Of a DNA stretch of 64,000 bases, positions 13,781-36,214 are shown piece by piece (the first letter of the stretch is position 1; each line of letters opens with the position of its first letter). The DNA is from Eledone cirrhosa (Eukaryota), in assembly GCA_964016885.1 (NCBI GenBank), contig OZ024741.1:325562001-325626000 (forward strand), read 5' to 3'. The notes under the pieces were generated by a model. The model saw nothing but the letters and a program-made list of their open reading frames with translations. It made no database searches and was not told the origin of the DNA. A program made the translations under genes and the position numbers.

Positions 13781-13935
13781 AATATATAATATATATATAT
13801 ATATAATTATATAGATTGTATAATGTTTCTATATATATTCATATATATATATTTATATATATATATATTTCGTTTCTGAATTTGGCAACATGACCCTCCC
13901 AAAGTATAACAATATATATATATATATATATATAT

Positions 13936-15460
13936 GTAAAAGAAATCAAAGAACGTCTACATACTTATATTTTTATATGCTGACAGTGTTTCATCCATAC
14001 CATGGGGCAGGAATCATCAGAGCTTTATAAACAAAAATATAGTGCTGAGTATAAGCTCTACCAAGCTTAGTCACACGAACATTAGATATACAGTACAGGA
14101 TAATAATGGCGAGGTCGGAAATCGAAAGGATGGAGAGAATGCGTAATGGGGTTGTTATTCAACATTACAGCTACATATGAGGATATAGGCAGAATTTCTC
14201 ACAAGAGGCGGAGGCACATGAGGGCACACAGAAACAAATAGAGCATTTAACGATAGTTATAAAATATAATAATAATAATAAAGTAAAATTAAAATAAAAA
14301 TAAAAATAAAAATACAAAAATAATTATAAAAATAATTAAAAATATTTAAAGCACGCAAAGCCAGAGGAAGTTATCCATTGGTCACTATATAGAGCAGGTG
14401 ATTTAGTTTCCGATAACTTAGAGTTATAGAAATACTAAGAGACCCCTAAGGTACCTTCAGAAAATCCAAAGGGGATTTTATTCCTCCCCATAGTATACAT
14501 AATCAGGGTATACTAGTAGGTTACGGAATTACGTGGACCAGGTGTGCTAAACCTGAACATATACAGGCACCACATCAATACAAGCTAAACATAGACAATG
14601 CGGGGTTAATGCATGGTCAAGCTGAAGCAAATAATACACAACAAATATGGTTTAGTCCCTGTATAAGGCACATCTGGCGAGGAGTCACGACATATGTATT
14701 TCCACCGTAGAAGTTAATCCAATCGGTTTCATATGCCCCGATTGGCGAGGAGTTATAATATAAGTAGATCGTCCATAGATAGTAATCCAGTCTAGAATTT
14801 ACAACATATGTAGATCGTCCGTAAAATGTAATCCAGTCGCATTCATATGCTCATCAAAACATATCAGCACATATGGTAACATATGTTACAGGCTGATGTT
14901 ACACATAAAAAATCCTCCCATGTTTAAAATTCCAGACCGCGATGTGTTGTATGTCCAAGTTGCAGCTCCAAATTCCGTATAACCATATTCGTCACACCCA
15001 ACCCAGCAGCGACTGCGTCCAAATAATACCAGGTTAAATGCAGCAGCAATTCCCCTTTGACCAATCGCGCGGACGTGGATTAACAATCAATACAAAACAG
15101 AAAATAACACAAAGTGCTCAAATCTGTAAATCCACCAGGCAACACAGTATGTCCATAAGGTGAGGTCATACCCATATAGGCATACAATAATTATATAAGA
15201 CAACTCTCATACCGCGCAACACTTCCCCATTATAGAATTAGTAAAGTTACCTTGGGCTTATGGACATATCCTACGTTAACCGCGATTTAATAGTCTATGG
15301 TATGACCCATCTGACAATTCTGGAGGTCCAATTATAATAATATAGTTTCATTTGTACGAATCTTATTGATTCAGTGTGATAACTCTGTTGGTGACTGAAT
15401 TGTTATGGCAGTTCGAATTAAATAGTCTCATAGACGACATGATAGAGTAGTTCCCCCTTT
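13936..15460 (-). mobile_element. HHR-bearing PLE pseudo-LTR-like repeat, uninterrupted minus-strand copy (inner boundary uncertain)
   Basis: 13936-15219 is the reverse complement of 15785-16700 joined to 33875-34212; contains an HHR; ends in (TA)n. Confidence 0.75.
13979..14023 (-). ncRNA. Minimal hammerhead ribozyme
   Basis: Minus strand GCT-CTGATGA-TTCC...GGAT-GAAAC-ACT-GTC-AGC. Confidence 0.75.
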
Positions 15461-15497
15461 CTCTGCTATTGAAACGTCATTATTTGGTGACTGAAAA

Positions 15498-15680
15498 ATG
15501 TGGATTGGCAGTATCGGTAGAGGGTCGGACGCCATGCTTTGACGCATAGAGTTACAGCCCTTGCCATTCTGAGTTCAAAGCCACGGAGGTTAACTTTGCC
15601 TTTCATCTTTACGGGGTCGATAAAATAAAGTACCAGTAATGCACTGGTTAATTGCTGGCCTTGTGCCAAAAGCAGAATCA
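15498..15680 (+). mobile_element. tRNA-derived SINE with 19-bp target-site duplication
   Basis: A box TGGCAGTATCGG, B box GAGTTCAAAGCC; TSD ATTATTTGGTGACTGAAAA at 15479-15497 and 15681-15699. Confidence 0.9.
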
Positions 15681-15784
15681 ATTATTTGGTGACTGAAAAG
15701 AGTATGTGCCTTCTACGTCATGGATTGGTGTGTATATACCTATCGCAGTGTGTTTATTTTTTTCAGAGCAGAGTTCCTGGATTA

Positions 15785-16700
15785 TTGCGCGGTATGAGAG
15801 CTGTCTTATATAATTATTGTATGCCTATATGGGTATGACCTCACCTTATGGACATACTGTGGTGCCTGGTGGATTTACTGATTTGAGCACTTTGTGTTAT
15901 TTTCTGTTTTGTATTGATTGTTAATCCACGTCCGCGCGATTGGTCAAAGGGGAATTGCTGCTGCATTTAACCAGGTATTGTTTGGACGCGGTCGCGGCTG
16001 GATTGGACGAATATGGTTATATGGAATTTGAAGCTGCAACTTGGACATATAGCACATCGCGGTCTGGAATTTTAAACATGGGAGGATTTTTTATGTGTAA
16101 CATCAGCCTGTGCATGTTACTATATGTGCTGATATGTTTTGATGAGCATATGAATGCGACTGGATTACATTTTACGGACGATCTACATATGTTGTAAATT
16201 CTAGACTGGATTACTATCGGACGATCTACTTATATTATAACTCCTCGCCAATCGGGGCATATGAAACCGATTGGATTAACTTCTACGGTGGAAATACATA
16301 TGTCGTGACTCCTCGCCAGATGTGCCTTATACAGGGACTAAACCATATTTATTGTGTATTATTTGCTTCAGCTTGACCATGTATTAACCCCGCTTTGTCT
16401 GTGTTTGGCTTGTATTGATGTGGTGCCTGTATATGTGTAGGTTTAGCACACATGGTCCACGTAATTCCGTAACCTACTAGTATACCCTGATTATGTATAC
16501 TATGGAGAGGAATAAAATCCCCGTTGGACTTTCTGAAGGTACCTTAGAGGTCTCTTAGTATTTCTATAACTCTAAGTTATGGGAAACTAAATCACCTGCT
16601 CTATATAGTGACCAATAGATAACTTCCTCTGGCTTTGCGTGCTTTACATTTTTTTAATTATTTTTATAATTATTATTGTATTTTAATTTTAATTTTACTT
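15785..16700 (+). mobile_element. 5' part of the plus-strand copy of the HHR-bearing repeat; continues at 33875 after the retrotransposon array
   Basis: Reverse complement of ~14280-15219. Confidence 0.85.
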
Positions 16701-19700
16701 TATTATTATTATTATTATTGTTATTGTTATTCCTTGAATCTCAGTCATTGATGTTGGTTAACTGGAAAGTCCGTTGGATTGAATATCAAGCAACTACCTG
16801 CAGCCTCAGATATTCAGGACGTATCGGAGGGTTCTTGCTGTTCCAAGCAAGCATGCCTTTTGAAGCGTTCCAAAAATCGTGAAGGGGCCGATTTTCTTTA
16901 ACCATCCCTGGAAACTTTTGGAGATAGTCCCCAGTGCGCCTATGACAATCGGGATCACTTTGACTTCATGGCAGTTCCAAATCCTTTTCACCTCCCACTT
17001 TAGGTCCTGGTATCGGTTAATTTTCTCCCTCTCCTTCTCTTGCACTCTCGTGTCGAACGGGCAGGCCACATCCACAATCAGGCACGATCTTTTTTCTTTG
17101 TCCACAACCACCAGGTCAGGTCTATTGTGTTCCAGTTTTTTGTCCGTCTGTATCCTAAAATCCCACAGCACCTTCACCTGATTGTTCTCCATCACCGCCT
17201 CTGGCCTATGCTCATACCATTTCTCAGAATGTGGTAGATTGTTTACTTTGCACAGGTGCCAGTGGATCACCCTGCCCATCACATCGTGTCTCCAGCCCTT
17301 ATAGTGGGTCTGGGCTAGGTGTTTACACTCGGACACAATGTGAGCCACAGTCTCCTCTCTCTCTCCACAGATCCTGCACAGTGGGCTAGCCTCCTCCTTG
17401 TAGATATGGTGCTTCAACCACTTCGTTTTGAGGGCCTGCTCCTGCGCAGCCATTAGCATTCCTTCTGTAGCCTTTTTGAGGTCTCCTCTTCTCAACCAGT
17501 TCCATGTCTGTGGATCTCTAAATTCAGTTTTCTCAAAGAAGGTACTATGAAGGGATTTTCCCTTAAGGCTGCTCTTCCTCCTTGATGTTATTTCCTCCTT
17601 GGACATCCCCTGGCCTACTGTCCCCTCCTTCAGTACAGTTCTGAGCATTGGCTCCTTACTATAGGTCACGTATTTGTATAGGTTGTTTTTCTCCATCTGA
17701 ACACAGTCCTCTATGCTGATAAGACCTCTTCCACCCTCAGATCTCCTTAGGTAGAGTCTATCGACATCACTCCTCTTGTGGAACATGTTGTAGATAGTCA
17801 ATAGTTTCCTAGTCTTCCTATCCATTTCTTTTTGTTCAGCAACATTCTATCTCAGAATTCCCGCACTGTACCTAATAATAGACACAGCTCGGGAATTTAC
17901 TGCGCTTATGGCATTTCTGCTGTTCAGATGTGTCTTCAATACGCTCCTTACTCTCCGAATGTATTCAGTTCTTAACAATTCCTTCATTTTTTTGTTCTTT
18001 ATGCCATCAGCCTCCAGAACGCCCAAATACTTGTATCCTTCCTCAGAGTCAATTTCCTTTATCATCTCACCTGTTGGTATCTGGATCCCGTTACTTCTGC
18101 TCAACCTACCCCTCTTCATCACAATGACTCCACATTTACCAACACCAAACTGCATACATATATCACTGCTGAAAATACGGACAGTGTCAACAAGCACATC
18201 CAACTCCTTCTCACTTTTCCCGATGAGCTTGAGATCGTCCATGAAGAGGAGGTGATTGATGGTAAGCTCTCCCCTTCCCAACTTGTATCCTGCTCTCACT
18301 TTTCGCAGCATAATGGTCAAGGGCATCAGGGCAAGGACAAACAACAGAGGGCACAGGCTATCTCCCTGGAAGATACCTCTCTTGATCTTCACGCTTCCCA
18401 AGGATACTCCAGTTGATGTCAACTCTGTCTCCCAGGACCCCATACTCCTGCCTAGCAACTGTCTGATGTTATCTGCCACCCTGAAGATCTCCAGGCTTTT
18501 GGTGATCCAGGAATGAGGCACCATGTCAAATGCCTTTCTGTAGTCTATCCATCCCATGGCAAGATCAGTGTGTCTCCTCCTGCAATTCCCCATTACCATC
18601 TTATCAATAAGCAACTGGTCCTTTGTACCACGTGACTTCTTTCGGCATCCTTTCTGTTCGTCCGGTAACAAGTTGTTTGTGTGGAGGTGATGGTAGATTT
18701 CCTCAGCCACAATGCTCGTCAACAGTTTCCACATTACGGGCAGACATGTAATAGGTCTATAGTTGGTAACATCATTACCCTTGATTCGGTCTTTCATTAT
18801 CAGAACTGTGGTACCTTTTGTCAACCACTCTGGCACCTCACCCGACACCAAGCAGTCATTGAACATGGCCGTCAGCTTCGGGTGGAAGGATGTTAAATGT
18901 TTAATCCAATACCCCTGCACACCATCTGGGCCTGGTGATTTCCAGTTGGTTAGTTTTTTGGCTTGCCCCTTAAGAGTTTCAACTGTGATACTCAAATCAG
19001 TCTGTTGCTGTGCCTGCTCACCGATCTCCCTCTGTACTGTCTCAATCCACCCTGCCTGGGCATTGTGTCTAACATCCTGCTCCCATATTCCTCTCCAGAA
19101 TGTTTTAGTATATTCCGCCCCAGGGATCAAGTCGTTGCCTCTTTCTTTCCCCTCAAGCTGTCCAAACAGCATCTTCTGGTTGTTGTCGAACACGCGGTTC
19201 TGTTTATACTGACTGACTCTGTTCTCGTATCGCCTGATTTTTGCACTCTTTGCTACAATGCGTTGCTTCAATTCCTCTATGATAATATTTAGCTTTTTAC
19301 TCCTAGTTTTGTATTTTATTTCCAGTCTATTTTTAGTGCCTATGTTTTTTAGTGTCCCATTCAGTAGTGACTCAAGCTTTCCTATGTCATTTCTCATTTC
19401 CCCGATTTGCCCACTCAGTCGCTTCTTCCACCACGGCTCTGCTCTTTCTTGTCTGTTGTTTCCTCTCGCTTTTATACCAAGTAGTTTCCTCACCGTATGT
19501 GCTGTTGCTTTGAGGATATTGTTGCACTGGTGAAGGCTCCTCGCCTCAAGGTATGGGATGACTTTGTTTACCTTAGCTGTTGTTTCTTTTAACTTTTTCC
19601 TGTGTACAAATCTTAGGTTCATAGGTCTCCCACTATCATTGTTCAATTCATCTACCACTAAATTTAGGATGTCAACCGAATCTTGTCCTAGCCCGTCAGC

Positions 19701-21280
19701 ATTCATCTCCTCAGTGGCCGTATCTCTCTTCCAGGTATTATTTATCTCAGTATTCAGATCATTGTCTGCTTCGGGTGGTTCCTCCGTTCTCAGGACCTCC
19801 TCACCTTCATTTCCCACCGGCTCGCTTGTCTGGCATACTACACCCGCCATCTCCAAGCCATTCTCTCTGCTCAGTTCCTCCAGTTCCAGCTCGCTTATCC
19901 ACCCATTAGTTCTTATTACCCGAGCCTGCCCGGCCAACTTTTGTTCATCTAATTTAAATAAACCAATCTCGTTCCAGATGTTATGCATCCGTCTCCTGTA
20001 GCCCCTCTCCTTGGGGTTACTTTTCAGGTAGCATTGCATAACAGTTCTATTCAATTCTTTCGTCCAGTTGGTTCTGGCCCCTTTCCTTCTTCTTCTTCCT
20101 CCAACATCAGCAGTATTTGGTTGACAGTCAGGTTCCTGCTGCTGAGCCAGGGGGCACCTGTTGGGTGAGAGTCTGTCACATGACGTTCTAGTCTCCATTT
20201 CACCGTTATTCGAACTGTTTATGTTCGATATTTAAACACTCTTATCGAGGATTGGCGAATGTATAGTTACATAGCCATCTGTGGGTCCGCCATCCCACTT
20301 GGCCCTTGTGTGGCATTATCGCCACGCTGTATACGAACACACATAAACAAACAAACACACAGGCAGAAAGGGCCCCAAAAATGAATAAGCATAAGTTTCA
20401 TTGTAATGTAGTGTTCGAATGTCTGACTTAGTTTTTGTTTTTTAAGTTTTAGTTTCTCCCCCCTCTTCTCTGTCCGTCCGCCTGCTTCTCTCTTCATTCT
20501 TATTTTCTTTACGTTTTTGGGGTTTCTTTTTTTGTTTTTGTTTTTCTCTGTTTGTTTTTCTCGTTTTTGCTGTTGTTGCTGTGCTGCTTTGGTTTTGTTG
20601 TTTGTTTTTTCTTTTTTCTTTTGAGTCTATCTATATATTTTGATGCCTTCCTCTTATTAGTAGTAGGAATTCTATAATGTGGAAGTAGCAGCCAGCAGGG
20701 AGAAGTGGGAGACTGGCGGCGGTAGCGATACTGAGACAGTGGTGGTGGTGATGTCGATACCGAGGCAGTGGTGGCGGTGATGTGACCGTATTACTGTAGT
20801 GATGGTGCTGTAGCGGTGGCAGTAGTGAAGGAGTCAAGGGGTGGTGGCGGCGGTGATGGGATAGTGGTGGTAATGATGGCCGTAGTGAGCGGTGGCGGTG
20901 AAGGTGAAAATGTCGTTATCTGGCTGTTGTGTTTAGTGTACACAGATGATGGGGTGGGTGGTGTATCTAGTTTCTGGTGTTGGTGAGTTTAGCTGTCCTA
21001 TATAGTGTAGCCAGAGGAGAGGAGGGGGGGGGGTTCTTCTTCTTCCATTTATAGCCATTTTCTTTTTTGGATATACAGTGTACAATACAAAGTTGAATAT
21101 TTGAATATTTGAGCCTTATAACAATATATTTTGGGTCCGAATTTTTTGGGGCTCAAGCCGGGTGCTTTACGTAGCATTTGTACTAAGAGTTGTTATTTCA
21201 CAAATGATTTAAATATGTTAAAAATTCAAAACTTACGGGAGCGATTTCATGACCTCCGTCACCTCGTGCGTCTTCTTCCC
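16700..21280 (-). mobile_element. R4/Dong-type non-LTR retrotransposon, copy A (full length, ~4.6 kb, ~1.08-kb 5' UTR, (AAT)n tail)
   Basis: RT plus CCHC plus restriction-like endonuclease (RLE); both ends abut (TTA)n. Confidence 0.9.
16806..20198 (-). pseudogene. Copy A RT-RLE ORF broken by one nonsense change (TGG>TAG at 17847-17849)
   Basis: The 783-aa and 339-aa ORFs are in the same frame and collinear with the 1130-aa ORF of copies D and F. Confidence 0.92.
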
Positions 21281-21297
21281 TTATTATTATTATTATT

Positions 21298-21476
21298 TGG
21301 ATTGGCAGTATCGGTAGAGGGTCGGACGCCATGCTTTCCAGCATAGTTACGTCCCTTTACGATCTGAGTTCAAATCCCGCCGAGGTTGACTTTGCCTTTC
21401 ATCCTTACGGGGTCGATAAAATAAAGTACCAGTAATGCACTGGGTGATTGCTGGCCTTGTGCCTAAAGTAGAAACA

Positions 21477-21478
<2 letters not shown>
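21298..21478 (+). mobile_element. tRNA-derived SINE flanked by (TTA)n inside the array
   Basis: A and B boxes, family core, (ATT)n tail. Confidence 0.9.
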
Positions 21479-21515
<37 letters not shown>

Positions 21516-22684
21516 GTTATTGTTATTCCTTGAATCTCAGTTATTGATGTTGGTTAACTGGAAAGTCCGTTGGATTGAATATCAAGCCACTACCTGCAGC
21601 CTCAGATATTCAGGACGTATCGGAGGGTTCTTGCTGTTCCAAGCAAGCATGCCTTTTGAAGCGTTCCAAAAAGCGTGAAGGGGCCGATTTTCTTTAACCA
21701 TCCCTGGAAACCTTTGGAGATAGTCCCCAGTGCGCCTATGACAATCGGGATCACTTTGACTTCATGGCAGTTCCAAATCCTTTTCACCTCCCACTTTAGG
21801 TCCTGGTATCGGTTAATTTTCTCCCTCTCCTTCTCTTGCACTCTCGTGTCGAACGGGCAGGCCACATCCACAATCAGGCACGATCTTTTTTCTTTGTCCA
21901 CAACCACCAGGTCAGGTCTATTGTGTTCCAGTTTTTTGTCCGTCTGTATCCTAAAATCCCACAGCACCTTCACCTGATTGTTCTCCATCACCGCCTCTGG
22001 CCTATGCTCATACCATTTCTCAGAATGTGGTAGATTGTTTACTTTGCACAGGTGCCAGTGGATCACCCTGCCCATCACATCGTGTCTCCAGCCCTTATAG
22101 TGGGTCTGGGCTAGGTGTTTACACTCGGACACAATGTGAGCCACAGTCTCCTCTCTCTCTCCACAGATCCTGCACAGTGGGCTAGCCTCCTCCTTGTAGA
22201 TATGGTGCTTCAACCACTTCGTTTTGAGGGCCTGCTCCTGCGCAGCCATTAGCATTCCTTCTGTAGCCTTTTTGAGGTCTCCTCTTCTCAACCAGTTCCA
22301 TGTCTGTGGATCTCTAAATTCAGTTTTCTCAAAGAAGGTACTATGAAGGGATTTTCCCTTAAGGCTGCTCTTCCTCCTTGATGTTATTTCCTCCTTGGAC
22401 ATCCCCTGGCCTACTGTCCCCTCCTTCAGTACAGTTCTGAGCATTGGCTCCTTACTATAGGTCACGTATTTGTATAGGTTGTTTTTCTCCATCTGAACAC
22501 AGTCCTCTATGCTGATAAGACCTCTTCCACCCTCAGATCTCCTTAGGTAGAGTCTATCGACATCACTCCTCTTGTGGAACATGTTGTAGATAGTCAATAG
22601 CTTCCTAGTCTTCCTATCCATTTCTTTTTGTTCAGCAACATTCCATCTCAGAATTCCCGCACTGTACCTAATAATAGACACAGC

Positions 22685-22685
<1 letters not shown>
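21479..22685 (-). mobile_element. R4/Dong copy B, 5'-truncated (~1.2 kb)
   Basis: Matches the C-terminal third of the ORF; truncation junction GACACAGCT|ATTATT. Confidence 0.93.
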
Positions 22686-22727
<42 letters not shown>

Positions 22728-23896
22728 GTTATTGTTATTCCTTGAATCTCAGTCATTGATGTTGGTTAACTGGAAAGTCCGTTGGATTGAATATCAAGCC
22801 ACTACCTGCAGCCTCAGATATTCAGGACGTATCGGAGGGTTCTTGCCGTTCCAAGCAAGCATGCCTTTTGAAGCGTTCCAAAAAGCGTGAAGGGGCCGAT
22901 TTTCTTTAACCATCCCTGAAAACCTTTGGAGATAGTCCCCAGTGCGCCTATGACAATCGGGATCACTTTGACTTCATGGCAGTTCCAAATCCTTTTCACC
23001 TCCCACTTTAGGTCCTGGTATCGGTTAATTTTCTCCCTCTCCTTCTCTTGCACTCTCGTGTCGAACGGGCAGGCCACATCCACAATCAGGCACGATCTTT
23101 TTTCTTTGTCCACAACCACCAGGTCAGGTCTATTGTGTTCCAGTTTTTTGTCCGTCTGTATCCTAAAATCCCACAGCACCTTCACCTGACTGTTCTCCAT
23201 CACCGCCTCTGGCCTATGCTCATACCATTTCTCAGAATGTGGTAGATTGTTTACTTTGCACAGGTGCCAGTGGATCACCCTGCCCATCACATCGTGTCTC
23301 CAGCCCTTATAGTGGGTCTGGGCTAGGTGTTTACACTCGGACACAATGTGAGCCACAGTCTCCTCTCTCTCTCCACAGATCCTGCACAGTGGGCTAGCCT
23401 CCTCCTTGTAGATATGGTGCTTCAACCACTTCGTTTTGAGGGCCTGCTCCTGCGCAGCCATTAGCATTCCTTCTGTAGCCTTTTTGAGGTCTCCTCTTCT
23501 CAACCAGTTCCATGTCTGTGGATCTCTAAATTCAGTTTTCTCAAAGAAGGTACTATGAAGGGATTTTCCCTTAAGGCTGCTCTTCCTCCTTGATGTTATT
23601 TCCTCCTTGGACATCCCCTGGCCTACTGTCCCCTCCTTCAGTACAGTTCTGAGCATTGGCTCCTTACTATAGGTCACGTATTTGTATAGGTTGTTTTTCT
23701 CCATCTGAACACAGTCCTCTATGCTGATAAGACCTCTTCCACCCTCAGATCTCCTTAGGTAGAGTCTATCGACATCACTCCTCTTGTGGAACATGTTGTA
23801 GATAGTCAATAGCTTCCTAGTCTTCCTATCCATTTCTTTTTGTTCAGCAACATTCCATCTCAGAATTCCCGCACTGTACCTAATAATAGACACAGC

Positions 23897-23897
<1 letters not shown>
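22686..23897 (-). mobile_element. R4/Dong copy C, 5'-truncated (1212 bp), mosaic of copies D and B
   Basis: Same breakpoint as B; SNP pattern switches from D-type to B-type. Confidence 0.92.
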
Positions 23898-23939
<42 letters not shown>

Positions 23940-26900
23940 GTTATTGTTATTCCTTGAATCTCAGTCATTGATGTTGGTTAACTGGAAAGTCCGTTGGATT
24001 GAATATCAAGCCACTACCTGCAGCCTCAGATATTCAGGACGTATCGGAGGGTTCTTGCCGTTCCAAGCAAGCATGCCTTTTGAAGCGTTCCAAAAAGCGT
24101 GAAGGGGCCGATTTTCTTTAACCATCCCTGAAAACCTTTGGAGATAGTCCCCAGTGCGCCTATGACAATCGGGATCACTTTGACTTCATGGCAGTTCCAA
24201 ATCCTTTTCACCTCCCACTTTAGGTCCTGGTATCGGTTAATTTTCTCCCTCTCCTTCTCTTGCACTCTCGTGTCGAACGGGCAGGCCACATCCACAATCA
24301 GGCACGATCTTTTTTCTTTGTCCACAACCACCAGGTCAGGTCTATTGTGTTCCAGTTTTTTGTCCGTCTGTATCCTAAAATCCCACAGCACCTTCACCTG
24401 ACTGTTCTCCATCACCGCCTCTGGCCTATGCTCATACCATTTCTCAGAATGTGGTAGATTGTTTACTTTGCACAGGTGCCAGTGGATCACCCTGCCCATC
24501 ACATCGTGTCTCCAGCCCTTATAGTGGGTCTGGGCTAGGTGTTTACACTCGGACACAATGTGAGCCACAGTCTCCTCTCTCTCTCCACAGATCCTGCACA
24601 GTGGGCTAGCCTCCTCCTTGTAGATATGGTGCTTCAACCACTTCGTTTTGAGGGCCTGCTCCTGCGCAGCCATTAGCATTCCTTCTGTAGCCTTTTTGAG
24701 GTCTCCTCTTCTCAACCAGTTCCATGTCTGTGGATCTCTAAATTCAGTTTTCTCAAAGAAGGTACTATGAAGGGATTTTCCCTTAAGGCTGCTCTTCCTC
24801 CTTGATGTTATTTCCTCCTTGGGTATCCCCTGGCCTACTGTCCCCTCCTTCAGTACAGCTCTGAGCATTGGCTCCTTACTATAGGTCACGTATTTGTATA
24901 GGTTGTTTTTCTCCATCTGAACACAGTCCTCTATGCTGATAAGACCTCTTCCACCCTCAGATCTCCTTAGGTAGAGTCTATCGACATCACTCCTCTTGTG
25001 GAACATGTTGTAGATAGTCAATAGCTTCCTAGTCTTCCTATCCATTTCTTTTTGTTCAGCAACATTCCATCTCAGAATTCCCGCACTGTACCTAATAATA
25101 GACACAGCTCGGGAATTTACTGCGCTTATGGCATTTCTGCTGTTCAGATGTGACTTCAATACGCTCCTTACTCTCCGAATGTATTCAGTTCTTAACAATT
25201 CCTTCATTTTTTTGTTCTTTATGCCATCAGCCTCCAGAACGCCCAAATACTTGTATCCTTCCTCAGAGTCAATTTCCTTTATCATCTCACCTGTTGGTAT
25301 CTGGATCCCGTTACTTCTGCTCAACCTACCCCTCCTCATCACAATGACTCCACATTTACCAATACCAAACTGCATACATATATCACTGCTGAAAATACGG
25401 ACAGTGTCAACAAGCACATCCAACTCCTTCTCACTTTTCCCGAAGAGCTTAAGATCGTCCATGAAGAGGAGGTGATTGATGGTAAGCTCTCCCCTTCCCA
25501 ACTTGTATCCTGCTCTCACTTTTCGCAGCATAATGGTCAAGGGCATCAGGGCAAGGACAAACAACAGAGGGGACAGGCTATCTCCCTGGAAGATACCTCT
25601 CTTGATCTTCACGCTTCCCAAGGATACTCCAGTTGATGTCAACTCTGTCTCCCAGGACCCCATACTCCTGCCCAGCAACTGTCTGATGTTATCTGCCACC
25701 CCGAAGATCTCCAGGCTTTTGGTGATCCAGGAATGAGGCACCATGTCAAATGCCTTTCTGTAGTCTATCCATCCCATGGCAAGATCAGTGTGTCTCCTCC
25801 TGCAATTCCCCATTACCATCTTATCAATAAGCAACTGGTCCTTTGTACCACGTGACTTCTTTCGGCATCCTTTCTGTTCGTCCGGCAACAAGTTGTTTGT
25901 GTGGAGGTGATGGTAGATTTCCTCAGACACAATGCTCGTCAACAGTTTCCACATTACGGGCAGACATGTGATAGGTCTATAGTTGGTAACATCATTACCC
26001 TTGATTCGGTCTTTCATTATCAGAACTGTGGTACCTTTTGTCAACCACTCTGGCACCTCACCCGACACCAAGCAGTCATTGAACATGGCCGTCAGCTTCG
26101 GGTGGAGGGATGTTAAATGTTTAATCCAATACCCCTGCACACCATCTGGGCCTGGTGATTTCCAGTTGGTTAGTTTTTTGGCTTGCCCCTTAAGAGTTTC
26201 AACTGTGATACTCAAATCAGTCTGTTGCTGTGCCTGCTCACCGATCTCCCTCTGTACTGTCTCAATCCACCCTGCCTGGGCATTGTGTCTAACATCCTGC
26301 TCCCATATTCCTCTCCAGAATGTTTTAGCTTGTTCCGCCCCAGGGATCAAGTCGTTGCCTCTTTCTTTCCCCTCAAGCTGTCCAAACAGCATCTTCTGGT
26401 TGTTGTCGAACATGCGGTTCTGTTTATACTGACTGACTCTGTTCTCGTATCGCCTAATTTTGGCACTCCTTGCTACAATGCGTTGCTTCAATTCCTCTAT
26501 GATAATATTTAGCTTTTTACTCCTAGTTTTGTATTTTATTTCCAGTCTATTTTTAGTGCCTATGTTTTTTAGTGTCCCATTCAGTAGTGACTCAAGCTTT
26601 CCTATGTCATTTCTCATTTCCCCGATTTGCCCACTCAGTCGCTTCTTCCACCACGGCTCTGCTCTTTCTTGTCTGTTGTTTCCTCTCGCTTTTATACCAA
26701 GTAGTTTCCTCACCGTATTTGCTGTTGCTTTGAGGATATTGTTGCACTGGTGAAGTCTCCTCGCCTCAAGGTATGGGATGACTTTGTTTACCTTAGCTGT
26801 TGTTTCTTTTAACTTTTTCCTGTCTACAAATCTTAGGTTCATAGGTCTCCCACTATCATTGTTCAACTCATCTACCACTAAATTTAGGATGTCAACCGAA

Positions 26901-28502
26901 TCTTGTCCTAGCCCGTCAGCATTCATCTCCTCAGTGGCCGTATCTCTGTTCCAGGTATTATTTATCTCAGTATTCAGATCATTGTCTGCTTCGGGTGGTT
27001 CCTCCGTTCTCAGGACCTCCTCACCTTCATTTCCCGCCGGCTCGCTTGTCTGGCATACTACACCCGCCATCTCCAAGCCATTCTCTCTGCTCAGTTCCTC
27101 CAGTTCCAGCTCGCTTATCCACCCATTAGTTCTTATTACCCGAGCCTGCCCGGCCAATTTTTGTTCATCTAATTTAAATAAACCAATCTCGTTCCAGATG
27201 TTATGCATCCGTCTCCTGTAGCCCCTCTCCTTGGGGTTACTTTTCAGGTAGCATTGCATAACAGTTCTATTCAATTCTTTCGTCCAGTTGGTTCTGGCCC
27301 CTTTCCTTCTTCTTCTTCCTCCAACATCAGCAGTATTTGGTTGACAGTCAGGTTCCTGCTGCTGAGCCAGGGGGCACCTGTTGGGTGAGAGTCTGTCACA
27401 TGACGTTCTAGTCTCCATTTCACCGTTATTCGAACTGTTTATGTTCGATATTTAAACACTCTTATCGAGGATTGGCGAATGTATGTTTACATAGCCATCT
27501 GTGGATCCGCCATCCCACTTGGCCCTTGTGTGGCATTATCACCACGCTGTATACGGACACACATAAACAAACAAACACACGGGCAGAAAGGGCCCCAAAA
27601 ATGAATAAGCATAAGTTTCATTGTAATGTAGTATTCGAATGTCTGACTTAGTTTTTGTTTTTTAAGTTTTACTTTTTCCCCCCTCTTCTCTGTCCGTCCG
27701 CCTGCTTCTCTCTTCATTCTTATTTTCTTTACGTTTTTGGGGTTTCTTTTTTTGTTTTTGTTTTTCTCTGTTTGTTTTTCTCGTTTTTGCTGTTGTTGCT
27801 GTGCTGCTTTGGTTTTGTTGTTTGTTTTTTCTTTTTTCTTTTGAGTCTATCTATATATTTTGATGCCTTCCTCTTATTAGTAGTAGGAATTCTATAATGT
27901 GGAAGTAGCAGCCAGCAGGGAGAAGTGGGAGACTGGCGGCGGTAGCGATACTGAGACAGTGGTGGTGGTGATGTCGATACCGAGGCAGTGGTGGCGGTGA
28001 TGTGACCGTATTACTGTAGTGATGGTGCTGTAGCGGTGGCAGTAGTGAAGGAGTCAAGGGGTGGTGGCGGCGGTGATGGGATAGTGGTGGTAATGATGGC
28101 CGTAGTGAGCGGTGGCGGTGAAGGTGAAAATGTCGTTATCTGGCTGTTGTGTTTAGTGTACACAGATGATGGGGTGGGTGGTGTATCTAGTTTCTGGTGT
28201 TGGTGAGTTTAGCTGTCCTATATAGTGTAGCCAGAGGAGAGGAGGGGGGGGGGGGTTCTTCTTCTTCCATTTATAGCCATTTTCTTTTTTGGATATACAG
28301 TGTACAATACAAAGTTGAATATTTGAATATTTGAGCCTTATAACAATATATTTTGGGTCCGAATTTTTTGGGGCTCAAGCCGGGTGCTTTACGTAGCATT
28401 TGTACTAAGAGTTGTTATTTCACAAATGATTTAAATATGTTAAAAATTCAAAACTTACGGGAGCGATTTCATGACCTCCGTCACCTCGTGCGTCTTCTTC
28501 CC
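23898..28502 (-). mobile_element. R4/Dong copy D, full length with intact ORF
   Basis: Collinear with copy A at an offset of ~7220 bp. Confidence 0.92.
24026..27418 (-). CDS. Non-LTR retrotransposon protein, 1130 aa (Myb-like N-terminus, reverse transcriptase, CCHC knuckle, RLE endonuclease), R4 clade
   Basis: WTKELN...CY, KSPGPDG, NYRPITCL, IDYRKAFD, GIFQGDSLSP, LFMDDLKL, CRIC...HIVSEC, NRPDLVV...IVDVACP. Confidence 0.93.
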   Translation of the reverse strand: METRTSCDRLSPNRCPLAQQQEPDCQPNTADVGGRRRRKGARTNWTKELNRTVMQCYLKSNPKERGYRRRMHNIWNEIGLFKLDEQKLAGQARVIRTNGWISELELEELSRENGLEMAGVVCQTSEPAGNEGEEVLRTEEPPEADNDLNTEINNTWNRDTATEEMNADGLGQDSVDILNLVVDELNNDSGRPMNLRFVDRKKLKETTAKVNKVIPYLEARRLHQCNNILKATANTVRKLLGIKARGNNRQERAEPWWKKRLSGQIGEMRNDIGKLESLLNGTLKNIGTKNRLEIKYKTRSKKLNIIIEELKQRIVARSAKIRRYENRVSQYKQNRMFDNNQKMLFGQLEGKERGNDLIPGAEQAKTFWRGIWEQDVRHNAQAGWIETVQREIGEQAQQQTDLSITVETLKGQAKKLTNWKSPGPDGVQGYWIKHLTSLHPKLTAMFNDCLVSGEVPEWLTKGTTVLIMKDRIKGNDVTNYRPITCLPVMWKLLTSIVSEEIYHHLHTNNLLPDEQKGCRKKSRGTKDQLLIDKMVMGNCRRRHTDLAMGWIDYRKAFDMVPHSWITKSLEIFGVADNIRQLLGRSMGSWETELTSTGVSLGSVKIKRGIFQGDSLSPLLFVLALMPLTIMLRKVRAGYKLGRGELTINHLLFMDDLKLFGKSEKELDVLVDTVRIFSSDICMQFGIGKCGVIVMRRGRLSRSNGIQIPTGEMIKEIDSEEGYKYLGVLEADGIKNKKMKELLRTEYIRRVRSVLKSHLNSRNAISAVNSRAVSIIRYSAGILRWNVAEQKEMDRKTRKLLTIYNMFHKRSDVDRLYLRRSEGGRGLISIEDCVQMEKNNLYKYVTYSKEPMLRAVLKEGTVGQGIPKEEITSRRKSSLKGKSLHSTFFEKTEFRDPQTWNWLRRGDLKKATEGMLMAAQEQALKTKWLKHHIYKEEASPLCRICGEREETVAHIVSECKHLAQTHYKGWRHDVMGRVIHWHLCKVNNLPHSEKWYEHRPEAVMENSQVKVLWDFRIQTDKKLEHNRPDLVVVDKEKRSCLIVDVACPFDTRVQEKEREKINRYQDLKWEVKRIWNCHEVKVIPIVIGALGTISKGFQGWLKKIGPFTLFGTLQKACLLGTARTLRYVLNI

Positions 28503-28519
28503 TTATTATTATTATTATT

Positions 28520-28698
28520 TGGATTGGCAGTATCGGTAGAGGGTCGGACGCCATGCTTTCCAGCATAGTTACGTCCCTTTACGATCTGAGTTCAAATCCC
28601 GCCGAGGTTGACTTTGCCTTTCATCCTTACGGGGTCGATAAAATAAAGTACCAGTAATGCACTGGGTGATTGCTGGCCTTGTGCCTAAAGTAGAAACA

Positions 28699-28700
<2 letters not shown>
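28520..28700 (+). mobile_element. tRNA-derived SINE, duplicate of 21298-21478
   Basis: Same sequence and same context. Confidence 0.9.
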
Positions 28701-28737
<37 letters not shown>

Positions 28738-29906
28738 GTTATTGTTATTCCTTGAATCTCAGTTATTGATGTTGGTTAACTGGAAAGTCCGTTGGATTGA
28801 ATATCAAGCCACTACCTGCAGCCTCAGATATTCAGGACGTATCGGAGGGTTCTTGCTGTTCCAAGCAAGCATGCCTTTTGAAGCGTTCCAAAAAGCGTGA
28901 AGGGGCCGATTTTCTTTAACCATCCCTGGAAACCTTTGGAGATAGTCCCCAGTGCGCCTATGACAATCGGGATCACTTTGACTTCATGGCAGTTCCAAAT
29001 CCTTTTCACCTCCCACTTTAGGTCCTGGTATCGGTTCATTTTCTCCCTCTCCTTCTCTTGCACTCTCGTGTCGAACGGGCAGGCCACATCCACAATCAGG
29101 CACGATCTTTTTTCTTTGTCCACAACCACCAGGTCAGGTCTATTGTGTTCCAGTTTTTTGTCCGTCTGTATCCTAAAATCCCACAGCACCTTCACCTGAT
29201 TGTTCTCCATCACCGCCTCTGGCCTATGCTCATACCATTTCTCAGAATGTGGTAGATTGTTTACTTTGCACAGGTGCCAGTGGATCACCCTGCCCATCAC
29301 ATCGTGTCTCCAGCCCTTATAGTGGGTCTGGGCTAGGTGTTTACACTCGGACACAATGTGAGCCACAGTCTCCTCTCTCTCTCCACAGATCCTGCACAGT
29401 GGGCTAGCCTCCTCCTTGTAGATATGGTGCTTCAACCACTTCGTTTTGAGGGCCTGCTCCTGCGCAGCCATTAGCATTCCTTCTGTAGCCTTTTTGAGGT
29501 CTCCTCTTCTCAACCAGTTCCATGTCTGTGGATCTCTAAATTCAGTTTTCTCAAAGAAGGTACTATGAAGGGATTTTCCCTTAAGGCTGCTCTTCCTCCT
29601 TGATGTTATTTCCTCCTTGGACATCCCCTGGCCTACTGTCCCCTCCTTCAGTACAGTTCTGAGCATTGGCTCCTTACTATAGGTCACGTATTTGTATAGG
29701 TTGTTTTTCTCCATCTGAACACAGTCCTCTATGCTGATAAGACCTCTTCCACCCTCAGATCTCCTTAGGTAGAGTCTATCGACATCACTCCTCTTGTGGA
29801 ACATGTTGTAGATAGTCAATAGCTTCCTAGTCTTCCTATCCATTTCTTTTTGTTCAGCAACATTCCATCTCAGAATTCCCGCACTGTACCTAATAATAGA
29901 CACAGC

Positions 29907-29907
<1 letters not shown>
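28701..29907 (-). mobile_element. R4/Dong copy E, 5'-truncated, duplicate of B
   Basis: Same breakpoint; shares the B-specific 3' UTR variant CTCAGTTATTG; one amino-acid difference (KINR vs KMNR). Confidence 0.92.
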
Positions 29908-29949
<42 letters not shown>

Positions 29950-32900
29950 GTTATTGTTATTCCTTGAATCTCAGTCATTGATGTTGGTTAACTGGAAAGT
30001 CCGTTGGATTGAATATCAAGCCACTACCTGCAGCCTCAGATATTCAGGACGTATCGGAGGGTTCTTGCCGTTCCAAGCAAGCATGCCTTTTGAAGCGTTC
30101 CAAAAAGCGTGAAGGGGCCGATTTTCTTTAACCATCCCTGAAAACCTTTGGAGATAGTCCCCAGTGCGCCTATGACAATCGGGATCACTTTGACTTCATG
30201 GCAGTTCCAAATCCTTTTCACCTCCCACTTTAGGTCCTGGTATCGGTTAATTTTCTCCCTCTCCTTCTCTTGCACTCTCGTGTCGAACGGGCAGGCCACA
30301 TCCACAATCAGGCACGATCTTTTTTCTTTGTCCACAACCACCAGGTCAGGTCTATTGTGTTCCAGTTTTTTGTCCGTCTGTATCCTAAAATCCCACAGCA
30401 CCTTCACCTGACTGTTCTCCATCACCGCCTCTGGCCTATGCTCATACCATTTCTCAGAATGTGGTAGATTGTTTACTTTGCACAGGTGCCAGTGGATCAC
30501 CCTGCCCATCACATCGTGTCTCCAGCCCTTATAGTGGGTCTGGGCTAGGTGTTTACACTCGGACACAATGTGAGCCACAGTCTCCTCTCTCTCTCCACAG
30601 ATCCTGCACAGTGGGCTAGCCTCCTCCTTGTAGATATGGTGCTTCAACCACTTCGTTTTGAGGGCCTGCTCCTGCGCAGCCATTAGCATTCCTTCTGTAG
30701 CCTTTTTGAGGTCTCCTCTTCTCAACCAGTTCCATGTCTGTGGATCTCTAAATTCAGTTTTCTCAAAGAAGGTACTATGAAGGGATTTTCCCTTAAGGCT
30801 GCTCTTCCTCCTTGATGTTATTTCCTCCTTGGGTATCCCCTGGCCTACTGTCCCCTCCTTCAGTACAGCTCTGAGCATTGGCTCCTTACTATAGGTCACG
30901 TATTTGTATAGGTTGTTTTTCTCCATCTGAACACAGTCCTCTATGCTGATAAGACCTCTTCCACCCTCAGATCTCCTTAGGTAGAGTCTATCGACATCAC
31001 TCCTCTTGTGGAACATGTTGTAGATAGTCAATAGCTTCCTAGTCTTCCTATCCATTTCTTTTTGTTCAGCAACATTCCATCTCAGAATTCCCGCACTGTA
31101 CCTAATAATAGACACAGCTCGGGAATTTACTGCGCTTATGGCATTTCTGCTGTTCAGATGTGACTTCAATACGCTCCTTACTCTCCGAATGTATTCAGTT
31201 CTTAACAATTCCTTCATTTTTTTGTTCTTTATGCCATCAGCCTCCAGAACGCCCAAATACTTGTATCCTTCCTCAGAGTCAATTTCCTTTATCATCTCAC
31301 CTGTTGGTATCTGGATCCCGTTACTTCTGCTCAACCTACCCCTCCTCATCACAATGACTCCACATTTACCAATACCAAACTGCATACATATATCACTGCT
31401 GAAAATACGGACAGTGTCAACAAGCACATCCAACTCCTTCTCACTTTTCCCGAAGAGCTTAAGATCGTCCATGAAGAGGAGGTGATTGATGGTAAGCTCT
31501 CCCCTTCCCAACTTGTATCCTGCTCTCACTTTTCGCAGCATAATGGTCAAGGGCATCAGGGCAAGGACAAACAACAGAGGGGACAGGCTATCTCCCTGGA
31601 AGATACCTCTCTTGATCTTCACGCTTCCCAAGGATACTCCAGTTGATGTCAACTCTGTCTCCCAGGACCCCATACTCCTGCCCAGCAACTGTCTGATGTT
31701 ATCTGCCACCCCGAAGATCTCCAGGCTTTTGGTGATCCAGGAATGAGGCACCATGTCAAATGCCTTTCTGTAGTCTATCCATCCCATGGCAAGATCAGTG
31801 TGTCTCCTCCTGCAATTCCCCATTACCATCTTATCAATAAGCAACTGGTCCTTTGTACCACGTGACTTCTTTCGGTATCCTTTCTGTTCGTCCGGCAACA
31901 AGTTGTTTGTGTGGAGGTGATGGTAGATTTCCTCAGACACAATGCTCGTCAACAGTTTCCACATTACGGGCAGACATGTGATAGGTCTATAGTTGGTAAC
32001 ATCATTACCCTTGATTCGGTCTTTCATTATCAGAACTGTGGTACCTTTTGTCAACCACTCTGGCACCTCACCCGACACCAAGCAGTCATTGAACATGGCC
32101 GTCAGCTTCGGGTGGAGGGATGTTAAATGTTTAATCCAATACCCCTGCACACCATCTGGGCCTGGTGATTTCCAGTTGGTTAGTTTTTTGGCTTGCCCCT
32201 TAAGAGTTTCAACTGTGATACTCAAATCAGTCTGTTGCTGTGCCTGCTCACCGATCTCCCTCTGTACTGTCTCAATCCACCCTGCCTGGGCATTGTGTCT
32301 AACATCCTGCTCCCATATTCCTCTCCAGAATGTTTTAGCTTGTTCCGCCCCAGGGATCAAGTCGTTGCCTCTTTCTTTCCCCTCAAGCTGTCCAAACAGC
32401 ATCTTCTGGTTGTTGTCGAACATGCGGTTCTGTTTATACTGACTGACTCTGTTCTCGTATCGCCTAATTTTGGCACTCCTTGCTACAATGCGTTGCTTCA
32501 ATTCCTCTATGATAATATTTAGCTTTTTACTCCTAGTTTTGTATTTTATTTCCAGTCTATTTTTAGTGCCTATGTTTTTTAGTGTCCCATTCAGTAGTGA
32601 CTCAAGCTTTCCTATGTCATTTCTCATTTCCCCGATTTGCCCACTCAGTCGCTTCTTCCACCACGGCTCTGCTCTTTCTTGTCTGTTGTTTCCTCTCGCT
32701 TTTATACCAAGTAGTTTCCTCACCGTATTTGCTGTTGCTTTGAGGATATTGTTGCACTGGTGAAGTCTCCTCGCCTCAAGGTATGGGATGACTTTGTTTA
32801 CCTTAGCTGTTGTTTCTTTTAACTTTTTCCTGTCTACAAATCTTAGGTTCATAGGTCTCCCACTATCATTGTTCAACTCATCTACCACTAAATTTAGGAT

Positions 32901-33779
32901 GTCAACCGAATCTTGTCCTAGCCCGTCAGCATTCATCTCCTCAGTGGCCGTATCTCTGTTCCAGGTATTATTTATCTCAGTATTCAGATCATTGTCTGCT
33001 TCGGGTGGTTCCTCCGTTCTCAGGACCTCCTCACCTTCATTTCCCGCCGGCTCGCTTGTCTGGCATACTACACCCGCCATCTCCAAGCCATTCTCTCTGC
33101 TCAGTTCCTCCAGTTCCAGCTCGCTTATCCACCCATTAGTTCTTATTACCCGAGCCTGCCCGGCCAATTTTTGTTCATCTAATTTAAATAAACCAATCTC
33201 GTTCCAGATGTTATGCATCCGTCTCCTGTAGCCCCTCTCCTTGGGGTTACTTTTCAGGTAGCATTGCATAACAGTTCTATTCAATTCTTTCGTCCAGTTG
33301 GTTCTGGCCCCTTTCCTTCTTCTTCTTCCTCCAACATCAGCAGTATTTGGTTGACAGTCAGGTTCCTGCTGCTGAGCCAGGGGGCACCTGTTGGGTGAGA
33401 GTCTGTCACATGACGTTCTAGTCTCCATTTCACCGTTATTCGAACTGTTTATGTTCGATATTTAAACACTCTTATCGAGGATTGGCGAATGTATGTTTAC
33501 ATAGCCATCTGTGGATCCGCCATCCCACTTGGCCCTTGTGTGGCATTATCACCACGCTGTATACGGACACACATAAACAAACAAACACACGGGCAGAAAG
33601 GGCCCCAAAAATGAATAAGCATAAGTTTCATTGTAATGTAGTATTCGAATGTCTGACTTAGTTTTTGTTTTTTAAGTTTTACTTTTTCCCCCCTCTTCTC
33701 TGTCCGTCCGCCTGCTTCTCTCTTCATTCTTATTTTCTTTACGTTTTTGGGGTTTCTTTTTTTTTTTTTTTTGTTTTTC
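29908..33779 (-). mobile_element. R4/Dong copy F, intact ORF, truncated within the 5' UTR
   Basis: 5' UTR stops in a T-run at ~33779, followed by ~95 bp of (TTA)n. Confidence 0.92.
30036..33428 (-). CDS. Non-LTR retrotransposon protein, 1130 aa, R4 clade
   Basis: Matches 24026-27418 except QKGC>QKGY. Confidence 0.93.
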   Translation of the reverse strand: METRTSCDRLSPNRCPLAQQQEPDCQPNTADVGGRRRRKGARTNWTKELNRTVMQCYLKSNPKERGYRRRMHNIWNEIGLFKLDEQKLAGQARVIRTNGWISELELEELSRENGLEMAGVVCQTSEPAGNEGEEVLRTEEPPEADNDLNTEINNTWNRDTATEEMNADGLGQDSVDILNLVVDELNNDSGRPMNLRFVDRKKLKETTAKVNKVIPYLEARRLHQCNNILKATANTVRKLLGIKARGNNRQERAEPWWKKRLSGQIGEMRNDIGKLESLLNGTLKNIGTKNRLEIKYKTRSKKLNIIIEELKQRIVARSAKIRRYENRVSQYKQNRMFDNNQKMLFGQLEGKERGNDLIPGAEQAKTFWRGIWEQDVRHNAQAGWIETVQREIGEQAQQQTDLSITVETLKGQAKKLTNWKSPGPDGVQGYWIKHLTSLHPKLTAMFNDCLVSGEVPEWLTKGTTVLIMKDRIKGNDVTNYRPITCLPVMWKLLTSIVSEEIYHHLHTNNLLPDEQKGYRKKSRGTKDQLLIDKMVMGNCRRRHTDLAMGWIDYRKAFDMVPHSWITKSLEIFGVADNIRQLLGRSMGSWETELTSTGVSLGSVKIKRGIFQGDSLSPLLFVLALMPLTIMLRKVRAGYKLGRGELTINHLLFMDDLKLFGKSEKELDVLVDTVRIFSSDICMQFGIGKCGVIVMRRGRLSRSNGIQIPTGEMIKEIDSEEGYKYLGVLEADGIKNKKMKELLRTEYIRRVRSVLKSHLNSRNAISAVNSRAVSIIRYSAGILRWNVAEQKEMDRKTRKLLTIYNMFHKRSDVDRLYLRRSEGGRGLISIEDCVQMEKNNLYKYVTYSKEPMLRAVLKEGTVGQGIPKEEITSRRKSSLKGKSLHSTFFEKTEFRDPQTWNWLRRGDLKKATEGMLMAAQEQALKTKWLKHHIYKEEASPLCRICGEREETVAHIVSECKHLAQTHYKGWRHDVMGRVIHWHLCKVNNLPHSEKWYEHRPEAVMENSQVKVLWDFRIQTDKKLEHNRPDLVVVDKEKRSCLIVDVACPFDTRVQEKEREKINRYQDLKWEVKRIWNCHEVKVIPIVIGALGTISKGFQGWLKKIGPFTLFGTLQKACLLGTARTLRYVLNI

Positions 33780-33874
<95 letters not shown>

Positions 33875-33877
<3 letters not shown>

Positions 33878-34308
33878 TTTATAACTATCGTTAAATGCTC
33901 TATTTGTTTTTGTGTGCCCTAATGTGCCTCTGCCTCTTGTGAGAAAATCTGCCTATATCCTCATATGTAGCTGTAATGTTGATTAACAACCCCATTACGC
34001 ATTCTCTCCATCCTTTCCATTTCCGATCTCCCCATTATTATCCTGTACTGTATATCTAATATTCGTGTGACAAAGCTTGGTAGAGATTATACTCAGTATT
34101 ATATTTTTGTTTATAAAGCTCTGATGATTCCTGCCCCATGGTATGGATGAAACACTGTCAGCAAATAAAAATTGTATGAGTATGTAGGCGTTCTTTGATG
34201 TCTTTTACATATAACGGCTCTGTTCTTGTACATTGAGCTAATACAATACTGTCACAAATACGACACGGTGCAGGTGCGTTTATGCACATACGCTCCGTTG
34301 TCTAAGTA
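33875..34308 (+). mobile_element. 3' part of the interrupted HHR-bearing repeat
   Basis: 33875-34212 is the reverse complement of ~13936-14268; ends in (TA)n. Confidence 0.85.
34118..34162 (+). ncRNA. Minimal hammerhead ribozyme
   Basis: GCT-CTGATGA-TTCC...GGAT-GAAAC-ACT-GTC-AGC followed by AATAAA. Confidence 0.78.
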
Positions 34309-34321
34309 TATATATATATAT

Positions 34322-34444
34322 AGTATAAAAGAGAAAACACAGGTAAGCATTAAGAGTAGGATTTTATCCAGGTATTTACGACGGTCGTAAATACCTGGAT
34401 AAAATCCTTCTCTTAATGCTTACCTGTGTTTTCTCTTTTATACT
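34322..34444. repeat. Near-perfect palindrome, 61-bp arms, 1-nt loop
   Basis: Centre TTTACGAC-G-GTCGTAAA at 34383; one mismatch between arms. Confidence 0.95.
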
Positions 34445-34635
34445 TTATACTCCAAGATTGAACGGAATTCTTACAAACTTGTGGAGTTACCCCTAACCGT
34501 ACGTTGAAACCATCCATGAAACTGGCTTTCTTAACCAAAAACTGTATCAAAATAAGCAATTTTTTGCTTCTCTAACTATATATAGAAACATTGTTTACTA
34601 ACATTATACAATGCTCGAGAATCCTTGCTCAATAA

Positions 34636-36060
<1,425 letters not shown>

Positions 36061-36214
36061 AACATGAGAGGGGAGTGTGGTGGACAGGAGAGTGAAGCTG
36101 TGAGCTATGTTAAGTTTAATGACTTTCTAAAGAGATTGTCAGCTGTCTCAATTGAAATATCCATCTTCTACATCTGTTGAAATTTGCCTAAATCTACTTA
36201 AATTCTATTATTTC

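Follow-up and report, generated by a model that had tools for sequence, protein, structure and literature searches.

A 64,000-nt window of the Eledone cirrhosa genome (contig OZ024741.1) contains a tandem array of an R2-like retrotransposon inserted in an ATT microsatellite; all coordinates given here are positions in this window, while genome-wide counts refer to the whole 3.0-Gb assembly. The array proper spans 16702-33875 (~17.2 kb) and is composed of six head-to-tail units on the minus strand, designated A to F. Their common 300-nt register begins at 16700, 21496, 22708, 23920, 28718 and 29930, and the unit spacings from A to F are 4796, 1212, 1212, 4798 and 1212 bp. The original prediction had placed the array at 16700..33779. 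The right-hand limit corresponds to the end of the homology of copy F, but the array begins at 16702 (tail) or 16720 (element body); the AT-rich stretch 16679-16701 was assigned to the flank because it is also found in an empty paralogue of the insertion site.

At the left end of the array, (ATT)6 (16702-16719, minus strand) is either what is left of the target microsatellite on this side or the tail of A. Copy A (16720-21282, minus strand) is a full-length element of a subfamily that we term a-type, with a frame interrupted by one stop. Between A and B, (ATT)5 and a repeat resembling a short interspersed element (SINE) occupy 21283-21476 on the plus strand, the SINE-like repeat itself (21298-21476) being inserted in the microsatellite. 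Copy B (21477-22685, minus strand) comprises an (ATT)13 tail and the 3'-terminal ~1.17 kb of an a-like element, truncated on its 5' side at ...AGCTGTG (sense strand). Copy C (22686-23897, minus strand) has B's truncation junction and is a hybrid unit, with a switch interval at 23191-23610. Copy D (23898-28504, minus strand) is full-length and also a hybrid, in which the body of a second subfamily, f-type, is joined to an a-type distal 5' untranslated region (UTR), with the switch at 27677-27753. A second copy of (ATT)5 plus SINE-like repeat (28505-28698, plus strand), identical to 21283-21476, separates D from copy E (28699-29907, minus strand), a duplicate of B with one differing site (29037). 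Finally, copy F (29908-33779, minus strand) is an f-type element without the distal 733 bp of the 5' UTR, and its truncated end abuts (TAT)32 (33780-33875), the right remnant of the target microsatellite. The homology of F to A and D stops at 33779, after a T-run that diverges from 33764; apart from this T-run variant at its end, F has one private substitution (31876).

Self-BLAST of the window recovered two long repeats, one pairing 16679-23897 with 23897-31119 (99.18% over 7223 bp, offset 7218-7222) and the other pairing 22689-27769 with 28699-33780 (99.80% over 5082 bp, offset 6010). These agree with the offsets of 7220 and 6010 that had been predicted, which differ by about one unit of 1212 bp.

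Copies D and F each have an open frame of 1141 codons from stop to stop (24026-27451 and 30036-33461, respectively), with the first Met of D at 27418, and in copy A the same frame is split into 794 + 346 codons by a single in-frame stop at 17847-17849. The protein contains a reverse transcriptase domain (Pfam RVT_1, E 5.3e-23, residues 476-727), and its closest relatives of solved structure are R2 proteins (9nl3_A, E 6.4e-30, vs 1e-14 for ORF2p of the long interspersed element LINE-1, or L1). In a C-terminal PD-(D/E)xK region, residues 1018-1091, including RPDLVVVD...DV...K, align to 9nl3_A 1044-1118 (i-E 0.054). A zf-RVT match at residues 890-962 was weak and under the Pfam cut-off; no AP-endonuclease family was matched in the Pfam search of the array protein, and no N-terminal zinc finger was evident by eye. 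The element is an R2-like retrotransposon lacking long terminal repeats, with a reverse transcriptase and a restriction-like endonuclease, and its target is (TAA)n/(ATT)n. An HDV-like (hepatitis delta virus-like) self-cleaving 5' ribozyme is known for R2 proper and is not required in the wider group; no ribozyme family was found by Rfam at E <= 0.1 in 13500-35000.

The choice of target makes this element a candidate member of the Dong/R4 clade. Dong of Bombyx mori, as Xiong and Eickbush are said to have described it in 1993, is an R4-clade element with the target (TAA)n. Like Dong, the present element has a single open reading frame (ORF) with a reverse transcriptase and a C-terminal restriction-like endonuclease, inserts into TAA/ATT trinucleotide repeats and has a tail made of the same repeat.

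On its own strand every unit ends with ...AATAACAATAAC(AAT)n. At the other end, 37 of the 38 out-of-window matches that begin at query base 1 end at query base 983-1004 (window 21282-21303), and because they stop there we set the full-length 5' end at window 21282, with (ATT)n immediately beyond it. What is called the distal UTR in A and D belongs to the element, and therefore F, which is without 733 bp of it, is 5'-truncated. An (ATT)n tract was present at the 5' end in 10/10 other loci inspected (one with CTT units), and truncated copies likewise end in (ATT)n in 8/8 cases, one of these (L052) in (CTT)n. The truncation junctions (L036-L052; window 22685/23897/29907) mostly end ...ATT or ...TT before (ATT)n, which suggests that microhomology with the target may play a part. 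Two unrelated loci, L038 and L047, are truncated 2 nt apart.

The family is abundant, with 3271 first-look candidates, and nearly all of 40 copies scored were at 98-99%. A neighbour of the same family lies within 150 bp of 13 of 20 full-length copies, so that head-to-tail neighbours are normal for this family. Contigs from runs with five different organism labels contained 46-77% of the sampled array words, for which reason the family is taken to be near-identical across these labels.

The array occupies a single target site, as can be read from an older inverted duplication that flanks it. The arms of this duplication are about 92-95% alike and are separated by a 565-bp spacer; the array splits the right arm into a proximal part (15785-16701), which ends with ...TTTTACTTT directly before the array, and a distal part (33876-34213). 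The left arm (13931-15219), in contrast, retains an uninterrupted target, with (AAT)4 at 14268-14279, and serves as an internal empty-site control. In inverted orientation, 14259-15219 matches 16730-15785 at 94.5% and 13931-14344 matches 34213-33795 at 91.7%. Read as its reverse complement, the left arm has the uninterrupted sequence ...TTTTACTTT(ATT)4ATATTTTATAACTATCG... (core ACTTT(ATT)4ATATTTTATAAC), whereas the filled site in the right arm reads ...TTTTACTTT(ATT)6[A ... F](TAT)32ATTATATTTTATAACTATCG..., its distal part continuing the sequence that follows (ATT)4 in the empty paralogue. Because the left arm shows the same target unfilled, the whole 17.2 kb can be assigned to one short ATT microsatellite.

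Copies B, C and E terminate at the identical base, ...cacagct followed by (ATT)n, as the original prediction had stated. A 39-mer across this junction has three matches genome-wide, all within the window, and three truncation junctions taken from other loci gave one match each. Seven sites separate B/E from D/F. Copy C has the D/F allele at 22754, 22847, 22919 and 23190 and the B/E allele at 23611, 23612 and 23647; this 4 | 3 split bears out the claim that C is D-type up to 23190 and B-type from 23611. Over its 1212 bp, C shows 0 differences from its presumed parents. B and E also share a T at 21542/28764 that was seen in 0/20 other copies.

Copy D was predicted to match F up to ~27680 and then to follow the arrangement of A. 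This holds: D has the F allele at all 46 sites that distinguish A from F, from 16792 to A:20456 (= D:27676), and is A-like from 27754 onward. In 27754-29910, D and E equal A and B except for a GG homopolymer indel (28244-5) and the substitution at 29037, and the A-like stretch covers the distal 5' UTR, (ATT)5, the SINE-like repeat and the truncated copy. Were the 47 differences between A and D distributed evenly over 5989 bp, the chance of finding no more than one in the right-hand 2232 bp would be 9e-9. Divergence between the matching parts is minimal: one substitution in 3757 bp between the bodies of D and F (plus F's T-run), and one substitution and one indel in 2232 bp between D-right/E and A-right/B. 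Within the latter, the SINE-like repeat and E beside D are copies of the SINE-like repeat and B beside A, with one substitution in 1.4 kb.

The status of the alleles shared by D and F depended on the comparison sample. A first set of 20 full-length copies was picked by similarity to A's distal UTR, and all were a-type; by this comparison, the 46 sites comprised 22 alleles private to A (0-1/20), 13 seemingly private to D/F (0/20) and 11 polymorphic. However, a 52-mer with three of the 'D/F-private' alleles (the f-marker) has 521 matches genome-wide, and privacy as judged from the first 20 copies was rejected. When 20 copies with the f-marker were compared, 8 of the 13 alleles turned out to be markers of the f-type subfamily, which is a lesson in sampling. 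The allele blocks switch as claimed, but most 'D-type' alleles are subfamily markers rather than private mutations. Four D/F alleles were unseen in all 40 copies (D:25702, 26456, 26469 and 26756) and one (24131) is rare. A 42-mer with alleles 26456 and 26469 occurs genome-wide in D and F only (2 matches), and a 42-mer with A's 18224/18231 alleles has a single occurrence. The word for 24131, instead, is found in C, D, F and four unrelated copies.

Copy A is a member of the a-type subfamily and F of the f-type, and the two subfamilies differ in their distal 5' UTR. Eleven f-marker copies extend into the 5' region, and 10 of them have a different distal UTR, with at least a dozen substitutions and several indels; the f-type 5' region also has an extra tandem copy of D-coordinates 4100-4441 (~340 bp; L037, L039, L041-L043, L046, L049, L053-L055). 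This tandem segment resembles the repeated monomers of mouse L1 leaders. At all positions that distinguish the f-type distal UTR, D is a-type, and it has in common with A a 1-bp deletion next to a substitution (27873/27876). A 40-mer from the distal UTR of A and D has three matches genome-wide, the third in a copy that is 97.9% identical to both. D is therefore an inter-subfamily hybrid with its parents still next to it in the array, because the distal UTRs of A and F differ by subfamily: its f-type body is identical by descent with that of F and its a-type distal UTR with that of A. The diagnostic words are so rare genome-wide (3 for the junction, 2 for D/F and 3 for the A/D UTR, vs 521 for the subfamily marker) that the duplicates are best taken as identical by descent and not as independent insertions.

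Copy A has 22 private substitutions, 11 of them transversions, all in the body (16792-20456) and none in the distal UTR. The idea that A is itself a hybrid was dropped, as 3 of 19 other a-type copies have 10-15 such changes in the body and 0 in the UTR.

The spacing of its units points to how the array arose. A single unequal exchange leaves a hybrid midway between its parents, with the left part derived from the right-hand parent. Leaving out C, copies A, D and F are evenly spaced at 6010 bp, and D has the structure F-left/A-right; B, C and D are spaced at 1212 bp, and C, because it sits between B and D, can only be D-left/B-right. An ancestral A-SINE-B-F locus expanded by A/F and then B/D recombination, as originally proposed, is the only two-step history that fits both the spacing and the allele blocks. 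Most likely, A, B and F were inserted by three retrotranspositions and the SINE by a further insertion, and the array then grew through two unequal homologous exchanges of DNA. The prediction of three insertions plus two unequal crossovers is supported as to the two exchanges, while the insertions become four if the SINE is counted.

In the first exchange, F would have paired with A out of register, so that the distal UTR, the SINE-like repeat and B were copied behind the body of F. Its products would be D, with an f-type ORF and an a-type distal UTR (switch D:27677-27753), and E, a copy of B that was carried along. In the second, D would have paired with B, adding the 1212-bp hybrid unit C, with a switch between 23191 and 23610. 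We favor this order, F x A first and D x B second, because the reverse order needs a third event. Both exchanges appear to be recent relative to the insertions, since the duplicates attributed to the first event differ by 2 substitutions over ~5990 bp and C by 0 over 1212 bp.

The position of the first switch bears on the mechanism. In A it falls at 20457-20533 (or 20549), that is, within the final 77-93 bp of the ~3850 bp over which A and F are homologous; this interval is 2.0-2.4% of the homology, lies right beside (TAT)32 and would be hit by a random crossover in roughly one case out of 45. A broken end at or close to (TAT)32 might have invaded A out of register and copied onward, in a manner resembling synthesis-dependent strand annealing or break-induced replication (SDSA/BIR-like), which would fix the location of the switch. 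Since the first switch lies at the end of the homology beside (TAT)32, break-primed copying seems somewhat more likely than a classical crossover for this event, even if the sequence cannot separate the two. The switch of the second event is mid-unit and uninformative in this respect.

Some observations weigh against this history or parts of it. The preference for break-primed copying over a crossover rests on one positional coincidence (~2%). D shows no switch within the region that is homologous in all three full-bodied copies; we place its switch on account of the sequence that follows F's end and of F's T-run. As for C, the order of the allele blocks by itself has P = 2/35, or 2/15 if 23611/23612 are counted as one change, and taken alone is weak. 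The rare allele 22919 A (= D 24131) was rejected as exclusive to C, D and F, as the four unrelated copies have it too, without the other D/F-exclusive alleles. What supports C as a hybrid is the junction together with the rare alleles. Furthermore, false overlaps made in silico between units that are 99.4-100% identical would mimic unequal exchange exactly, so that the true locus could be A-SINE-B-F, with near-identical units traversed extra times by the assembler. In that case the homopolymer indel and the two substitutions, which are all that separates the duplicates, could be allelic or sequencing errors. Public short contigs over the array measure 70-770 bp, with word depths of tens of thousands, which reflect the multicopy family, and give no informative span of a unit boundary. 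Such an over-expansion would nonetheless require two independent false loops, at a true locus of merely ~10 kb with unique flanks. Long reads normally span ~10-kb loci flanked by unique sequence, and assemblers collapse such repeats more often than they expand them. The window contains no N, and the B/C/E junction is on no second haplotig. All considered, we regard over-expansion as distinctly unlikely.

The same mosaics could in principle be produced by duplication and gene conversion, or in three steps (B x F, next F x A, and finally the loss of a unit). Gene conversion is common between adjacent repeats, and if F converted a duplicate of A, the tract would end where the homology ends, which is where D's switch lies. 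Yet each of these routes requires at least three events, and the conversion tract would be long (at least 3.7 kb), whereas two exchanges account directly for the even spacing of A, D and F and for C lying between B and D. We find these alternatives quite unlikely.

Also to be weighed against the two exchanges is a second full-length copy that combines f-type body markers with an a-type distal UTR. This copy, L050 (G000:C1:114507596-114512547), lies on another chromosome and joins the two parts without long neighbours, implying that hybrids of this kind can be dispersed copies. On that model D would be a retrotransposed member of a pre-existing hybrid lineage, or the product of template switching by the reverse transcriptase, and RNA-level mechanisms are given for mosaic L1 families in the relevant passage of PMC3600994. 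The switch in L050 differs from that of D, however, as it is located at D-coordinates 27036-27556, and the alleles at D:27556 are already a-type. Moreover, D is trailed by the same (ATT)5, SINE-like repeat and truncated copy as A, which retrotransposition cannot bring along; it shares with F alleles seen nowhere else in the genome, and with A a UTR variant found in one other, distant copy. An RNA-level origin of D is accordingly very improbable, and we retain the two DNA-level exchanges as the likely explanation of the array. L050 itself may be either an older recombinant that has since moved or an evolutionary intermediate.

The array is an unusually legible new case of a known process, the growth of arrays by unequal recombination after insertion. 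In the ribosomal DNA (rDNA) of Bacillus rossius, 5'-truncated or degenerate R2 copies are described as multiplied by unequal recombination (PMC4370867). As with R2 in rDNA, a site-specific retrotransposon with a restriction-like endonuclease is involved, and a truncation variant appears to have been multiplied by unequal recombination of the surrounding DNA and not by new retrotransposition. Unlike there, the target is a microsatellite and the elements themselves supply the homology, which in rDNA is provided by the host repeat units; in addition, the exchange fused parts of two subfamilies into a structurally complete copy. For Utopia in U2 genes, the passage in PMC4640811 relates head-to-tail tandem insertions to target specificity; it covers tandem insertion alone and not exchange between members after insertion.

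A further comparison is with the mosaic LINE-1 families of mouse and rat, for which, according to the portion of PMC3600994 dealing with them, DNA-level recombination was proposed as a source and then discounted. Those families, as portrayed there, resemble D in having a younger coding body on a different 5' UTR, which gives a hybrid element. They are known from dispersed products alone, whereas here parents and product stand side by side, and the exchange can be assigned to the DNA level because the flanking SINE-like repeat and truncated copy came along. The locus thus offers a small-scale record of retrotransposon array growth, with all parents and products present and enough markers to order the events. 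It also provides a concrete example of how a structurally complete LINE may be assembled at the DNA level out of copies of two subfamilies, one full-length with a stop and the other 5'-truncated.

The original prediction had held that a complete element was rebuilt from two defective parents. Structurally this stands, as A has one stop, F is without 733 bp and D has an open 1141-codon frame with a full 5' end. The rescue was not vital to the family, though, because the frame is already open in 9 of 20 sampled full-length copies. For the same reason, and because no daughters of D were found, the effect on the family is probably small; the genome-wide search with the D/F 42-mer returned no daughters of D or F, and could miss shorter ones.

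One broader idea is that the arrays formed by microsatellite-targeting LINEs in their target act as nurseries of recombinants, in which adjacent dead copies of different subfamilies swap 5' UTRs by DNA exchange and the resulting, structurally complete hybrids can found lineages. If so, D would be a hybrid caught beside both its parents, L050 would descend, as a dispersed copy, from an earlier hybrid, and the nursery would represent a DNA-level route to mosaic LINE families of the kind discounted for L1. We hold this idea to be unlikely. L050 was itself considered as a second such locus and set aside, as its 10-kb flanks have just two short truncated copies, with no parents adjoining.

The SINE-like repeat of the array (~180 bp) is present in the window in at least 11 copies, at 15498-15680, 21298-21476, 28520-28698 and eight more positions. 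The copy at 15498-15680, in the spacer of the inverted duplication, has a 19-bp target-site duplication (15479-15497 and 15681-15699). ARAGORN detected no transfer RNA (tRNA), and no tRNA relatedness of the repeat was found by ARAGORN or by Rfam at E <= 0.1; the label 'SINE-like' was kept because of the size, the copy number and the one target-site duplication. At locus L008, a related SINE-like copy lies right after the (ATT)n at the element's 5' end.

Two other repeats lie to the right of the array. A 133-bp near-perfect palindrome at 34317-34449, 96% self-complementary, is probably a hairpin-forming short repeat; it overlaps a sub-threshold Rfam match to MIR7994 (60.5 bits, vs a gathering score of 100). 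Farther on, 36101-37250 is a minisatellite with a 24-bp period (GTCATAGTCACCGCCGTCGGGTTG), ~37 copies and super-periods of 30 and 108 bp.

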